Assembly (NCBI GenBank): GCA_001730065.1
Contig: MDLE01000006.1
Coordinates: 74,938 to 138,937, forward strand
Reading direction: 5' to 3'
DNA length: 64,000 nt
Source of the DNA: Rickettsiales bacterium (ex Bugula neritina AB1)
Lineage (GTDB): Bacteria; Pseudomonadota; Alphaproteobacteria; CAJXXZ01; UBA1459
Shown: positions 6,004-20,993 of the stretch, piece by piece
How positions within the stretch are numbered: the stretch's first letter is position 1
Layout: every line of letters begins with the position of its first letter
Program-made: the position numbers and the translations under genes
The notes under the pieces: generated by a model
What the model was told of the DNA's origin: nothing
Database searches by the model: none
Seen by the model: only the letters and a program-made list of their open reading frames with translations

Positions 6004-8279
6004 ATACCTAAAATTTTTTTTGCTTCATCAATGTTTTCTACAAAATTAACATTAATATCTTTAATGGAACTATCTTCTTTAAGAATTAATTCATAATGTT
6101 CTTTATTTTCTAATGGTAAAATAACTTCTTTAATACCATAATTAATCGCTCCCAACAATTTTTCTTTAATACCACCAATTTTCATTATTTCACCACTTAA
6201 ATTGATTTCTCCTGTCATAGCAAAAGTTTTAAGAACTTTATTAGTAAGTGTAGATAAAATACTAAAATACAGTGCCATACCTGCAGATGGTCCATTTTTT
6301 GGTATAGCACCTTCTGGTAAATTTAAGTGTAAAATATGATTTTCAAAAAAATCTTTTTCTATGTTGTATAAAGAAGCATGTTTACGTACTAAACTATAAG
6401 CAATATGAGCACTTTCTTTCATAACACTTCCTAAGTTACCAGTAATTTGAAAAAAAGATTTACTAGATGGTATAAAAGAAGATTCGATTATTAGAATATC
6501 ACCGCCCCCAAGACTCCAAGATAAACCAATACTTTTTCCTACGGATAATTTAGGTGGTTTAAAATCAATAGGTACTTCATCAATAAATTTATTTATATCT
6601 TTTTTTTTTATTTTAAGGGATTTTTTCTTTTCTTTTATAAGTAAAAAAATAGCTTTTTCTAAAATACTTTTTAGTTTTTTAGATAAATTTCTAACACCTA
6701 ACTCTCTCGTATAATATTTTATTAATCCTTCAATAAAATCTTCTTGAATTTCTACTTCGTTATTATTTATACCATATTGTTTATACATTTCTGGTAATAA
6801 AAATTCTTTTGTAATATGTTTTTTTTCCTTTAAAGAATAACCATCAATAAAAATAATTTCCATACGTGATAAAATATACATAGGAATATTTTCAAGAGTA
6901 TTAGCCGTAAAAACAAACATTGCATTACTAATATCATAAGGAATATTTAAGTAATGATCCGTAAAACTATTATTTTGAGTTTCATCAATCAAAGCAGTAA
7001 TAACCTTTAAAGGATCATTATAGGCGTTACGATTAATTTTATCTAATTCATCCATTTGAATTAATGGATTAGATACGTCTGTTTTTAATAACGCATCTAC
7101 GATCATACCCGGTAATGCACCTACAAAAGTACGACGATGTCCTACTAAATCAGAACTATCACTTATACCTGTGAGAGATATAAAATGAAATTTTCTATTA
7201 AGACATTCTCCAATACTTTTACAAATAGAGGTTTTACCTACACCAGGTGGTCCCACTAATAATAAAATTTTTGGTGGTATTTTGTTTTTTATATCCTTAT
7301 TTTTTATTACAGTTGCCATATAATGAAGAATTTTATCTTTTACGGTTTTTAATCCATAGTGGTGTTGATTAAGAATTTTTTCTCCTTTAATAAGATTAAC
7401 ATCATTAATATTTGTGTATTTACCCCATGGTAAAGAAAGAACTGTTTTGAGATAATTATAGGAAATACTATACTCATTAGAAGATAATGGTAATGTTTTC
7501 ATTTTATAAAATTCTTTCATTAAGCTTTTTTTGATATTTTCAGGTATATTTATATTTTCTTCAATAAGTGTATCTATTTCTTCGTTTTCTATATATTTAT
7601 TATGTTTTTTAATTTCTTCCTGAATAATTTTTAATTTTTCCTGTAATAAAAAATTTCTATGTTGTTTTTCAATAGATTCTTTTACTAAAATATTAATTTC
7701 CTCTTCAAGAGTAAATTTTAACTTTTCATCTAAATTATATAAAAAATTTTTTAATGTTTTTAAAATATCTTGAGAATCAAGAAAACTTTTACGAATATTA
7801 TGATTATTCAAAAAAGCACCTATTTTATAAAAGAAATCAATGGGGTTTAAACAAAAAAAACTATATACATCTATATTATTATCTTTTAGGGCAATATATT
7901 TACAAATTTTACTTCTTATTACATCAAACTCAATGAATTGGAAAGGTTTTATTTCTAATGTATCTTTTTTAAAATTACAGGTTAATATGTCTTTATTTTT
8001 CTCAGAATCTGTAATTAATACTCTTTCTATGCCTTTAAAACGTATAGTACATATTTCAGTACTAATATTTATAATTTTACTTTTACATCTAACACCATAC
8101 TTACCATTAATTATTTCAAAATTTTTAAGTAAAACTTCTTGAAAATTAATATTATTTAAAAAAGGTAAAATTATTACTTCTTTAATACTGTTTAAACTAT
8201 TTACAAAATCTACAGGTAATTCTATTGTTAGATTTTCATTTGGTAAAATACACTTATTAAATATTGGTATTAATATCAT
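6000..8279 (-). CDS. lon: ATP-dependent Lon protease
   Basis: GPPGVGKTS Walker A, DELDK Walker B region, protease-domain PKNGPSAGMA with the catalytic Ser. Lies directly downstream of clpX with a 4-nt overlap. Confidence 0.95.
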   Translation of the reverse strand: MILIPIFNKCILPNENLTIELPVDFVNSLNSIKEVIILPFLNNINFQEVLLKNFEIINGKYGVRCKSKIINISTEICTIRFKGIERVLITDSEKNKDILTCNFKKDTLEIKPFQFIEFDVIRSKICKYIALKDNNIDVYSFFCLNPIDFFYKIGAFLNNHNIRKSFLDSQDILKTLKNFLYNLDEKLKFTLEEEINILVKESIEKQHRNFLLQEKLKIIQEEIKKHNKYIENEEIDTLIEENINIPENIKKSLMKEFYKMKTLPLSSNEYSISYNYLKTVLSLPWGKYTNINDVNLIKGEKILNQHHYGLKTVKDKILHYMATVIKNKDIKNKIPPKILLLVGPPGVGKTSICKSIGECLNRKFHFISLTGISDSSDLVGHRRTFVGALPGMIVDALLKTDVSNPLIQMDELDKINRNAYNDPLKVITALIDETQNNSFTDHYLNIPYDISNAMFVFTANTLENIPMYILSRMEIIFIDGYSLKEKKHITKEFLLPEMYKQYGINNNEVEIQEDFIEGLIKYYTRELGVRNLSKKLKSILEKAIFLLIKEKKKSLKIKKKDINKFIDEVPIDFKPPKLSVGKSIGLSWSLGGGDILIIESSFIPSSKSFFQITGNLGSVMKESAHIAYSLVRKHASLYNIEKDFFENHILHLNLPEGAIPKNGPSAGMALYFSILSTLTNKVLKTFAMTGEINLSGEIMKIGGIKEKLLGAINYGIKEVILPLENKEHYELILKEDSSIKDINVNFVENIDEAKKILGI

Positions 8280-9583
8280 ATTAAACTTTTTCCTAAATTC
8301 TTTTTATCATTAATAATTTTTTGATTATTATCAAAAACAATTATAGCTTCTTCATTATTTGCAGTTGTTTCATCAAGAGTGATAGTAATTTTTTTCTTTA
8401 TATTTGGTAATTCAAATAAAACATTACGAAAAATTTTATTAAAAATACTACGAATACTTCTTGCACCTGTTTTATCATTATATATTTTATCAGCAATTAT
8501 TTTAATAAATTCATCTTTAACAATTAATTCACTATTATAGTGATAATTTAAAATTAATTTATACTCATCAATTATATTATTTTTCTTTTTTGTTAAAATT
8601 TCTATAATATTATTTTTTGTTAAATTTTTTGTAAATATAATTATTGGTAAACGACCAATAATTTCTGGTATAAATCCAAATTTTATTAAATGCTCTTTTT
8701 TAAAATGAGTAATTACTTCCTCATAATTACTATTTTTATCTAATGATTTATTCACATTAAAACCTATATTTGATCCAAGACTTTTTAATATAATCTTATC
8801 TAATCCTTCAAAAGCACCTGATAAAATAAATAAAATATTTGTAGTATTAACATTAACTACTTCTTGGTGTGTGTTTTTTTTATTATTATTATTAAACAAA
8901 CTTACTTCATTACCTTCTAAAAGTTTTAATATCATTTGTTGTACGGATTCACCACTAATATCTCTTGAGTTATTATCACTTACACGTTTTGCTTTTTTAT
9001 CAAACTCATCAATAACACATATACCCATTTCCGTTTTCTCTAGTGCAGTACTTGGATCAATATTACTATCATAAAAACCAGATTTATTTAATAACTTATT
9101 TATACACTCATCTCCATCATTACCCACATAACCTACTTCCGTAAGTGTGGTTGCGTCCGTAAAAGATATAGGTAAATTTAAAATATTTCCGAGCGTCTCT
9201 AGTAATAAAGTCTTTCCAGATCCTGAAGGACCTATTATTAAAACATTAGATTTTTTAACATTTTTTGATAAATCTTTATTTTTAACACGAATCTGGTGTA
9301 AATAAGCTACTAATGCAATTTCTTTTTTTGCCTCCTCTTGACCTGCAATAACTTCATCTAAAAGATTATATATTTCTTTTGGTGTTAGAGTAGATAAATT
9401 TTTTGGATTCTTTATAAATTCTTCTTGATCATCCTGTAACAAAATAGAATAACAGGTTTCTATACATATATCACAAATTAAACCATCTGCTGATTCTGTT
9501 GCTACTAATTTTTTTACTTCACTCTTGTGTCGTGAACAAAAACAACAATTCTCCATCATTATTTTTATTCTATCATTGTTCAA
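8276..9583 (-). CDS. clpX: ATP-dependent Clp protease ATP-binding subunit ClpX
   Basis: N-terminal C4 zinc finger CCFCSR...ICDICIETC, GPSGSGKTLL Walker A, IDEFDK Walker B, GARSIRS sensor region. Confidence 0.95.
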   Translation of the reverse strand: MNNDRIKIMMENCCFCSRHKSEVKKLVATESADGLICDICIETCYSILLQDDQEEFIKNPKNLSTLTPKEIYNLLDEVIAGQEEAKKEIALVAYLHQIRVKNKDLSKNVKKSNVLIIGPSGSGKTLLLETLGNILNLPISFTDATTLTEVGYVGNDGDECINKLLNKSGFYDSNIDPSTALEKTEMGICVIDEFDKKAKRVSDNNSRDISGESVQQMILKLLEGNEVSLFNNNNKKNTHQEVVNVNTTNILFILSGAFEGLDKIILKSLGSNIGFNVNKSLDKNSNYEEVITHFKKEHLIKFGFIPEIIGRLPIIIFTKNLTKNNIIEILTKKKNNIIDEYKLILNYHYNSELIVKDEFIKIIADKIYNDKTGARSIRSIFNKIFRNVLFELPNIKKKITITLDETTANNEEAIIVFDNNQKIINDKKNLGKSLI

Positions 9584-9695: not shown

Positions 9696-10031
9696 CGTAA
9701 GTAGTAGTTTGATGGCGGTTGTAAAACTGAGGAAAGTCGGAACTTCAAAAGGCAAAATACCGCAGAAATTACGGCAGTAGAAATACTAGGGAAAGTACAA
9801 CAGAAAATAAACCGCTATTTTTTAAAAATAGTAAGGGTGAAACAGTGAGGTAAGAGCTCCCTATATTTATTAGTAATAATAAGTATTTGTAAACCCTATT
9901 TGAAGCAAAACCAAGCAGAGTAATGCGTAGCCTTTCGCTTATTTACTCGGGTAGGTTGCAGGAGAAATTTAGTAATAAATTTCCTAGATAAATCATCATT
10001 AAAACAGAATTCCGCTTACTCACTACTTACA
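9696..10031 (+). ncRNA. rnpB: RNase P RNA (bacterial type A, compact)
   Basis: Conserved blocks GAGGAAAGTC (P4 5' strand), GGTAAGAGC, GTAAACCC, AGATAAATCA and ACAGAATTCCGCTTA (P4 3' strand). The terminal P1 helix pairs GTAAGTAGT (9697-9705) with ACTACTTAC (10022-10030). Confidence 0.85.
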
Positions 10032-11220
10032 AAGTTATAGGATTTTGATTTTTTTTATTCATATTTTTAATTAAATGTCTAATGAAGATAATATGACATT
10101 TTTTTTTAATATTTTCTATTTCAGGAATCATAAAATTTGGTATTGATATATTAGAAATTAAATAATTATTAATAGGATTAATGGTTTTATTATTATATAA
10201 ATATACAAGATGTAAATGAGCAGCAGTAGCAGTACCTGAATGACCAATTTTTCCTATACATTGGTTAGTAGACAAAATTTTATCATTTTCTTTAACATAT
10301 ATGCTAGATAAATGACAATAACGAGTAGAATATAATGAATTATGCTCTATTTCTATATATCTACCATAACCAGACTGATTTGATTTGACTACTTTTTTTA
10401 CTACTCCTGGTGCTAAGCTATATAAATTTTCTCCATAAGGTAAACGTATATCTAAACCATCATGCATACGCCATTCATTAAAAACTGGGTGTAATCTCCA
10501 ACCATATTTAGATCCTATTAAAGATTTACTGTTTTTGGCAGGTAATGAATTTGTTATAGAAAGTACATTTCCAGGTATTATATTATTATCATTGTTAATT
10601 ATATATAATATATTATTAGCATAATATATATAAAACATTTCAGATGTATTATTATGAAAAACTACCTGAACAGCTATTATTTTACTATCTTTATAGGCAA
10701 AATTGAATTTTTGAATTTTTATATTATTATTTTTTTTTTGACAATCATACCAAGTATTAATTTGAAAAAATATAGATGATATATCTAAAAATAAATTATC
10801 CTTTAAGGTAGTATTTTGTAAAATATTATTCTTTACATTGCAAGAAATAAATTCTACACCTTCTGGTATTTGTTGTTGATAATCTATTTTTTTTATATTA
10901 ATAGATTCTTTTAATTTATTCTCTTCTTTTATAGATTTATTTATTTTGTAATAAGGTTTTTTTAAAAACAAAAATTTTGGTATAAAAACTTCTAATTTTT
11001 TCAAATATTTTGTTTTAAAAGATATAGATAAACCACCATTACAGAGTTTTTTAAAATTATCTAAATATTTTTTTACAATAGATGTTTTTATAATAGGTGA
11101 ATTATTATAAGTTAAATTAATATCTATTAAATTATCATTATTTGGAATAAGATGTCTTAATACCTTCAATTGATTGCTAGTTTCAGTACTAAAAAAAAAC
11201 AATAAAAATAATCTAAACAT
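10027..11220 (-). CDS. M23/LytM-family peptidoglycan endopeptidase
   Basis: C-terminal HDGLDI ... GYGRYIEIEH ... GHSGTATAAHLHL are the M23 zinc-ligand motifs (HxxxD and HxH). N-terminal signal peptide. Confidence 0.85.
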   Translation of the reverse strand: MFRLFLLFFFSTETSNQLKVLRHLIPNNDNLIDINLTYNNSPIIKTSIVKKYLDNFKKLCNGGLSISFKTKYLKKLEVFIPKFLFLKKPYYKINKSIKEENKLKESINIKKIDYQQQIPEGVEFISCNVKNNILQNTTLKDNLFLDISSIFFQINTWYDCQKKNNNIKIQKFNFAYKDSKIIAVQVVFHNNTSEMFYIYYANNILYIINNDNNIIPGNVLSITNSLPAKNSKSLIGSKYGWRLHPVFNEWRMHDGLDIRLPYGENLYSLAPGVVKKVVKSNQSGYGRYIEIEHNSLYSTRYCHLSSIYVKENDKILSTNQCIGKIGHSGTATAAHLHLVYLYNNKTINPINNYLISNISIPNFMIPEIENIKKKCHIIFIRHLIKNMNKKNQNPITL

Positions 11221-20602: not shown

Positions 20603-20676
20603 TACACCTAGTAGGACTTGAACCCACAACCCCCAGATCCGTAGTCTAGTACTCTATCCAATTGAGCTATAGGTGT
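20603..20676 (-). tRNA. tRNA-Arg (anticodon ACG)
   Basis: Acceptor ACACCTA/TAGGTGT, D-arm GCTC-AATTGGATA-GAGT, anticodon arm CTAGA-CTACGGA-TCTGG, T-arm GTGGG-TTCAAGT-CCTAC. Confidence 0.9.
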
Positions 20677-20742: not shown

Positions 20743-20904
20743 TTAATCTTTTTTATTTTCTTCTCTTTGGCAATCCCAGTTAGGATTATTCATAATATCC
20801 ATACAGGTTTTAATACATATATCACATACATACTTAAAATCTTCTTGAGTTTGAACTGTCTTATCTCTACCACAAAAACAACAATAAATTTTAAAATTAT
20901 TCAT
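20743..20904 (-). CDS. 53-aa free-standing ClpX-type C4 zinc-finger protein (not in the ORF track)
   Basis: Hand translation: MNNFKIYCCFCGRDKTVQTQEDFKYVCDICIKTCMDIMNNPNWDCQREENKKD*. The Cys spacing and flanking residues match the zinc-binding domain of the ClpX in this window (CCFCSRHKSEVKKLV...LICDICIETC). Confidence 0.55.
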   Translation of the reverse strand: MNNFKIYCCFCGRDKTVQTQEDFKYVCDICIKTCMDIMNNPNWDCQREENKKD

Positions 20905-20993
20905 AACCCTATTTTATCATAAACTACTAATATTCTAAAGAGAATTACTTAATATTTATTAATAAATTATTGACTTTTAAAGAATTTATTTAA

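Follow-up and report, generated by a model that had tools for sequence, protein, structure and literature searches.

The closest described relative of the protein reported here is the zinc-binding domain (ZBD) of ClpX (PF06689; E. coli structures 1OVX and 2DS5-2DS8), which forms dimers when isolated from the E. coli protein. Lambda-O, SspB, RssB and trigger factor all dock on one hydrophobic patch around F16 and I46 of E. coli ClpX (PMC7804408). Supplied in trans, the isolated E. coli ZBD inhibits RssB-mediated breakdown of sigma-S by ClpXP (PMC7226468). Small proteins that consist of ClpX-type fingers only, apart from the AAA+ motor, also exist: P0005 (165 aa) and P0007 (103 aa) contain two ZBDs each, score 88.9 and 124.2 bits on PF06689, respectively, and keep the K-L-I-A-G strand of the ClpX finger. 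Such stand-alone or tandem finger proteins are presumed to tune docking at ClpXP, and our literature search, whose coverage excluded most subscription journals, found no characterized stand-alone ClpX finger. IraD, IraM and IraP, which act as anti-adaptors, are likewise small blockers of delivery to ClpXP. Among eukaryotes, microProteins such as Id and LITTLE ZIPPER originate by partial duplication of an interaction or dimerization domain and act by titration or heterodimerization.

The locus described here encodes a microprotein (P0002, a ~6-kDa product) that resembles the ClpX ZBD in its first knuckle (C-x-F-C-G-[KR]), in its second knuckle and the helix that follows ([YF]-[IV]-C-[DS]-x-C-[IV]-x-x-C-x-D-I), and in the docking-patch Phe and Ile, which are invariant, but unlike ClpX it has no AAA+ module. 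It differs from P0005 and P0007 in that it and its orthologs score below the PF06689 threshold and have lost the K-L-I-A-G strand. Compared with other stand-alone or tandem ClpX fingers, it appears to be an independent, lineage-specific derivative of its own host's clpX, and it is found in a reduced genome of ~0.44 Mb with neither clpP/clpX nor phage linkage. The isolated E. coli ZBD would share the mechanism proposed below, the blocking of docking, but is an experimental construct, and the Ira proteins, whose sequences are unrelated, bind to the adaptor RssB rather than to ClpX; the symbiont itself has no known adaptor. The eukaryotic microProteins have the same type of origin and, by analogy, may act in a similar manner, albeit in another kingdom and with another fold. 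Endosymbiont genomes that are highly reduced lose genes and almost never gain them; in this one, a new gene appears to have been made from one domain of ClpX, an essential protease regulator, and kept. The case is one more origin, independent and lineage-specific, within the expanding class of stand-alone ClpX zinc fingers, and shows that the genes of this class can escape the length and Pfam cut-offs of annotation.

A short gene downstream of a yidC-like gene

The window, by which we mean the whole stretch of 64,000 nucleotides that was analyzed, has a GC content of ~20% and belongs to an assembly of 435 kb in 8 contigs that is 71% complete. An earlier note on this DNA had described a clean ATG-to-TAA ORF of 53 codons between tRNA-Arg and yidC, and we recovered it with the same coordinates and sequence, on the minus strand (Table 1). 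It lies within a 317-bp spacer, 89 bp downstream of the yidC-like ORF and 66 bp upstream of tRNA-Arg(ACG), and an Rfam scan of this spacer returned the tRNA as the sole match. P0002 is missing from a collection of 5.8 billion proteins, which agrees with its description as unannotated. The yidC-like gene is itself diverged: its only matches are below threshold (Pfam YidC_periplas, 22.7 bits; TIGR03593, 18.4 bits), and Pfam did not detect the core 60KD_IMP insertase domain in its product.

Table 1. Features of the microprotein locus and of the resident clpX (window coordinates)
Feature	Coordinates	Strand	Description	Basis
53-codon microprotein gene (P0002)	20743..20904	-	ATG at 20904, TAA at 20743	ORF listing and translation
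Parts of P0002			N-terminal C8-x2-C11 knuckle; hydrophilic 15-residue loop; C27-x2-C30 knuckle opening helix 28-38; conserved tail N39-N-P-x-W-D-C-Q46	
tRNA-Arg (ACG)	20603..20676	-	downstream neighbor of the microprotein gene in this genome only	tRNA and Rfam scans
Diverged yidC-like gene, 478 aa	20994..22430	-	directly upstream of the microprotein gene, same strand	
TGATAAAAT, extended -10-like box (candidate)	20911..20919	-	ends 6 nt before the ATG	three-way alignment of yidC-to-ORF spacers
Resident clpX	8276..9583	-		Pfam AAA_2, zf-C4_ClpX (35.7 bits) and ClpB_D2-small
Resident ClpX zinc-binding domain (ZBD), residues 13-48	9440..9547	-	probable parent of the microprotein	Pfam zf-C4_ClpX, 35.7 bits

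That a short frame should stay open by chance in an intergenic spacer of so AT-rich a genome would not in itself be surprising, and the antisense frame across the gene is open too (20767..20922). Several properties of the ORF nevertheless speak against this explanation. Its GC content is 24.7%, versus 12-15% in both flanks; its third codon position has the lowest GC, as is the case in clpX, dnaE and yidC; and an ORF of this length arises in only 1.6% of shuffles of the spacer. Together with the conservation, the purifying selection and the ClpX homology documented below, these data make a chance ORF a negligible prospect, and the assertion of the earlier note that the frame is not random holds: it has gene-like GC and is found intact and under purifying selection in two further lineages. 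The antisense ORF has 51 codons with a TTG start and covers nearly the whole microprotein gene on the plus strand. In the contig of one ortholog (L016, see below) the corresponding antisense frame is open over the first 80 nt only, which suggests that the ORF is a side effect of codon composition.

Alignment of the yidC-to-ORF spacers of the three lineages revealed an invariant core, TGATAAA (20913..20919), which forms part of a promoter-like match with TG at TGATAAAAT. Such matches are no commoner here than in shuffled sequence (37 found versus 30 expected), and promoter and terminator scans are uninformative in DNA of 80% AT. It is possible that this box is the microprotein gene's own promoter, with a very short or absent leader, but in such base composition the alignment offers only a hint.

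Homology to the ClpX zinc-binding domain

Several lines of evidence relate P0002 to the ClpX finger. Its top seven sequence matches in the PDB are all ClpX ZBDs (2DS5, E = 0.006), its NCBIfam matches are two ClpX equivalogs and nothing else, and in a BLASTP alignment of its residues 8-38 with residues 13-48 of the resident ClpX, 16 of the 36 positions are identical. We also derived a profile from the fingers of 120 ClpX proteins, the resident one not among them, and ran it against every stop-to-stop ORF of 30 aa or more in a six-frame translation of the complete genome (4,448 ORFs). The best match was clpX (31.6 bits), followed by the microprotein ORF (25.6 bits, E = 1.8e-6), with the next best match at E = 0.66. 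Across the microprotein and its two orthologs the same profile scores 25.4-26.1 bits, and hhalign relates the three-member family to the alignment of the 120 ZBDs with 97.4% probability. The proposed kinship with the ClpX zinc finger is thus confirmed, at the level of a free-standing ZBD homolog, by the PDB, NCBIfam, profile and hhalign matches. The resident ClpX itself, located by the earlier note at the position given in Table 1, is borne out on the minus strand by its three Pfam domains.

The standard Pfam model gives a weaker picture. An hmmscan of P0002 against Pfam yielded no match at E<=1, with PF06689 scoring 9.2 bits against a gathering threshold of 27 bits, whereas the resident ClpX scores 35.7-40.9 bits on this model. 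PF06689 is the best Pfam family for both orthologs (P0003, 18.3 bits, E = 0.002; P0008, 16.8 bits, E = 0.006), likewise below 27 bits, and since these do match, we ascribe the miss for P0002 to the 5-residue deletion that its inter-knuckle loop carries. The search against a ClpX zinc-finger profile that the earlier note had suggested therefore gave a divided answer, positive with our profile of 120 ZBDs and below the Pfam threshold in all three proteins. A similar distinction applies to the Cys pattern, which the note had described as that of ClpX: the four ligands are present, in a C-x2-C ... C-x2-C layout with a Phe between the first two Cys and another Cys four positions past the last ligand, but the pairs of P0002 are 15 residues apart and not 18-20 as in ClpX. 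Seven positions (C8, F10, C11, C27, C30, C34 and I37) are invariant in the three microproteins and in all the aligned ClpX proteins.

A small zinc ribbon of other descent (YacG-, DksA/TraR- or ribosomal-protein-like) that has converged on ClpX through AT bias would also account for the sub-threshold Pfam score. In line with this, Foldseek matches the P0002 structure model to treble-clef or zinc-ribbon folds of a generic kind (E>1 throughout), and long branches of biased composition could attract one another in a tree. Yet ClpX is the sole family matched in both PDB and NCBIfam, the genome-wide profile search picks out the microprotein ORF and clpX alone, and no YacG or other zinc-ribbon Pfam model matches at E<=1. 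Moreover, the ZBDs of eleven equally AT-rich reduced relatives lack the rare residues discussed below and fall outside the clade of the microproteins. We consider such an unrelated ribbon quite improbable. A gyrase inhibitor of the YacG type was considered because of the Trp after the finger, and was rejected: the second pair is C-x2-C rather than C-x3-C followed by D-L-G-x-W, and by structure YacG (4TMA) appears only at rank 30 of the Foldseek matches (E = 6.4).

Orthologs, synteny and selection

An exhaustive HMMER search of 1.84 billion representative proteins identified an ortholog of 53 aa (P0003; E = 1.5e-10, 63% identity), and a two-sequence profile of P0002 and P0003 then found another of 55 aa (P0008) among 5.8 billion proteins. 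They are located on Logan contigs from other samples (L016/L017 for P0003 and L018 for P0008), and the family presently has three known members. A word-indexed protein search with P0002 alone gave no match, and a profile scan of JGI metagenome contigs found no family member. Across 40 GTDB relatives, which are distant (their ClpX proteins are ~40% identical), no free-standing copy was seen, the matches being ClpX N-termini or noise; in the genomes of five relatives no homolog of the yidC-like gene was detected. Two proteins with YCCFCGR that were recovered by an exact 23-mer scan of metagenome contigs are both unrelated, and the single match from the genome-contig scan, L015, arose by chance in a GC-rich frame of Rhodobacterales.

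In both cases the gene of the ortholog immediately follows this yidC-like gene, in the same orientation; the neighbor of P0003 (473 aa, L016:426-1847) is 65.5% identical to the yidC-like protein of the window. The conservation and synteny check suggested by the earlier note thus had a positive outcome, with the four Cys ligands and the yidC-like linkage kept in both orthologs. On the other side, the downstream neighbor in L016, L017 and L018 is a convergent ftsZ, while here it is tRNA-Arg, then dnaE; the junction downstream of the microprotein gene is thus rearranged in the window genome. In L016, 306 bp (2117-2422) separate the microprotein gene from ftsZ, as against 21 bp in L018 (981-1001).

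The orthologous genes of L016 and L018 are 85% identical at the DNA level and show 15 synonymous and 8 nonsynonymous differences, corresponding to a dN/dS of 0.055 (Fisher P = 3e-9). With this level of identity and this number of synonymous differences, they are not assembly copies of one sequence. For the same pair of contigs, dN/dS is 0.065 for the C-terminal part of yidC and 0.022 for ftsZ. Between the window and L016, dN/dS is 0.23 for the microprotein gene (with dS at 1.29, i.e., above 1) and 0.20 for yidC. These ratios, combined with the saturation of silent sites, indicate that the frame has been kept open and the protein conserved, under selection as tight as that on the neighbors of ftsZ. 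Taken together, the microprotein ORF is very probably a real gene derived from the ClpX ZBD.

Origin from the resident clpX

The microproteins share several rare residues with the ClpX of the window genome. The first knuckle reads CCFC in the resident ClpX only, as opposed to CSFC in the other 120 of the 121 ClpX proteins compared. The Ile within the second knuckle (C-x-I-C) and the inter-knuckle spacer of 20 residues are likewise confined to the resident ClpX (1/121 each), and a Thr before the fifth Cys (T-C) occurs in 6/121. CCFC, C-x-I-C and T-C are all carried by the microproteins, and P0003 also has the 20-residue spacer. None of these three motifs is present in the ClpX of 11 relatives, most of which have comparably small genomes. 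A maximum-likelihood tree (IQ-TREE) was built from 96 distinct finger segments; with ~40 columns and long branches, it calls for careful reading. In it, the three microproteins form a clade (UFBoot 100) that is sister to the resident ClpX finger, and the split between the resident ClpX ZBD plus the three microproteins and the 92 other ZBDs also has a UFBoot of 100. The ZBDs of the reduced-genome relatives fall outside this clade. The simplest reading of these sequence comparisons is that the 5' end of clpX underwent a partial duplication in an ancestor shared by the three lineages, which gave rise to the microprotein, and that the copy was then retained.

Descent from clpX, together with the absence of the ORF from the gene calls of this genome, would also fit a pseudogene, the decaying leftover of a clpX duplicate whose frame has stayed open by chance, and the earlier note had named this as something that would count against its proposal. 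However, when the whole resident ClpX was compared by tblastn with the flanks in all three lineages, residues 13-48 matched and no collinear AAA+ part was found, and the spacer in the window is too small for an AAA+ remnant. Furthermore, the ORF is intact, with 53-55 codons, in three lineages whose synonymous sites have reached saturation; its dN/dS of 0.055-0.23 equals that of the neighboring essential genes; and its GC is gene-like against AT-rich flanks. A decaying duplicate is therefore very improbable, and the concern raised in the note is settled by the lack of AAA+ homology in the flanks and the dN/dS of 0.06-0.23.

In a search for close relatives of the resident ClpX, the best matches were ~41% identical, and no clpX was found on the 22-kb L016 contig. 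The only GTDB genome of the same family, G001, was set aside as a source of close relatives, as the finger of its ClpX differs (C-T-I-C ... C-S-S-C) and a phage-like contig carries its other match. The clpX of G001 is split into two overlapping frames of 175 aa and 269 aa with N/X at the junction (L034, G001:C48:7500-10500), which could reflect an assembly gap or a frameshift.

Departures from the canonical finger

Despite its descent, the microprotein is not a plain copy of the ClpX finger. The central strand of the finger, [KR]-[LIMV]-[IVL]-[AS]-G (K-L-I-A-G; in longer form V-x-[KR]-L-I-A-G-P), is present in 119/120 ClpX proteins and absent in all three microproteins; in the resident ClpX the motif is relaxed to KKLVA. 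The inter-knuckle loop comprises 15 residues in P0002, 20 in P0003 and 19 in P0008, as compared to 18 or 19 in the 120 other ClpX proteins and 20 in the resident ClpX, and it is far more hydrophilic in the microproteins (Kyte-Doolittle values of -1.45 to -1.99, versus -0.82 to 0.53 in ClpX). After the helix, a tail of N-N-P-[NH]-W-D-C-Q is invariant in the family and absent from ClpX, and C9 and C45 are extra invariant Cys residues of the microproteins.

An AlphaFold2 model of P0002, built from a 31-row alignment (pLDDT 78.5), has a hairpin at the first knuckle and a helix at residues 28-38. Foldseek retrieved no ClpX ZBD from the PDB with this model, all matches being at E>1, and a search of BFVD gave no match. 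As a control, the N-terminus of the resident ClpX was modeled in the same way (pLDDT 82.1), and here the top seven Foldseek matches were from 2DS5, 2DS6, 2DS7 and 2DS8, with probability 1.00, TM scores of 0.6-0.86 and an rmsd of ~1 Å. Since the control retrieves the ClpX ZBDs, the negative result for P0002 is informative. It may reflect either an error of the model, caused by the shallow family alignment, or a true departure from the canonical finger, and judging from the models, the canonical fold, and hence canonical dimerization or docking, may have been lost in the microprotein. The earlier description of a detached ClpX zinc finger consequently stands as regards homology to the ZBD, but not as regards a faithful copy, given the PF06689 threshold that is not reached, the lost K-L-I-A-G strand, the shorter loop, the new tail and the failure of Foldseek to return a ZBD. 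The microprotein is better described as a remodeled, lineage-specific ZBD derivative.

Proposed role at ClpXP

The features that the microprotein has kept are the two CxxC knuckles, the Phe at the first knuckle and the C-terminal helix (C-x-x-C-I-x-T-C-x-D-I). F10 and I37 are the equivalents of F16 and I46 of E. coli ClpX and are invariant in the family, and these two residues and the helix that bears I37 are the best-conserved non-Cys positions of the protein. The genome has an intact clpX with an IGF loop, and a clpP on another contig (C1). We propose that the microprotein would bind one Zn(Cys)4 and act on the network of the ClpX N-domain. As a decoy or anti-adaptor, it would occupy the peptide motifs that otherwise dock on the ClpX zinc finger; alternatively, it might pair with a ClpX zinc finger. 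By either route it would tune the choice that ClpXP makes of what to unfold or degrade. The analysis shows a real gene under selection, its homology to the ZBD and its origin from the lineage's own ClpX; zinc binding by the microprotein, and any contact with ClpX or its clients, are inferred. The main reading, in which a mini-domain carrying zinc alters docking at the ClpX N-domain or competes for it, has by our estimate a probability of roughly 0.45. Should the microprotein prove to act on ClpX, it would offer a compact, natural means to study the role of the ClpX N-domain in a setting with few or no adaptors.

A more specific version, that the microprotein heterodimerizes with the fingers of the resident ClpX hexamer or bridges clients through its NNP-x-WDCQ tail, in replacement of lost adaptors, appears unlikely. 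If it were true, this ~0.44-Mb symbiont would own a home-made regulator of its main unfoldase, and the shared CCFC, C-x-I-C and T-C would reflect co-evolution of an interface and not just common descent. Among the 8 contigs of the assembly (71% complete), ARAGORN finds 38 tRNAs and no tmRNA, and the only match to SspB is below threshold (16 bits, C1:56040-56282).

The main rival to a docking role at ClpXP is a ZBD derivative with a new function, in which the knuckles would form a scaffold from which the new loop and the NNP-x-WDCQ tail bind a partner other than ClpX, such as the ribosome, nucleic acid or the protein encoded by the yidC-like gene. The loss of the central ClpX strand, the hydrophilic loop and the invariance of the new tail across three lineages all fit this explanation, as does the fact that the P0002 model, as opposed to the control, is not recognized as a ZBD. 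The microprotein gene is linked to the yidC-like gene rather than to clpX or clpP, a linkage that was kept though the downstream neighbor changed, and the lack of SspB and tmRNA in the assembled contigs points in the same direction. However, the residues that are best kept are those of the ClpX docking patch and its helix (F10, I37 and C-x-x-C-I-x-T-C-x-D-I), no other family is similar at E<0.05, and gene order is broadly frozen in reduced genomes, such that the yidC linkage weighs little. We therefore hold a function away from ClpX to be a real but tentative alternative, and retain competition at the ClpX N-domain as our main reading.

Observations at the clpX locus

The clpX gene of the window is not adjoined by clpP. 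Its ORF is listed from a TTG at 9583 (9557-9583, minus strand), with in-frame ATG codons at residues 9 and 10, just before the CCFC knuckle; these two codons leave the true start of clpX, and thus the length of the N-terminal arm of ClpX, uncertain. Most of the 443-bp gap upstream of clpX is filled by an RNase P RNA of class A on the plus strand (9697-10034, 237.9 bits), which overlaps the last 8 nt of an M23-peptidase ORF (10027..11220, minus strand).
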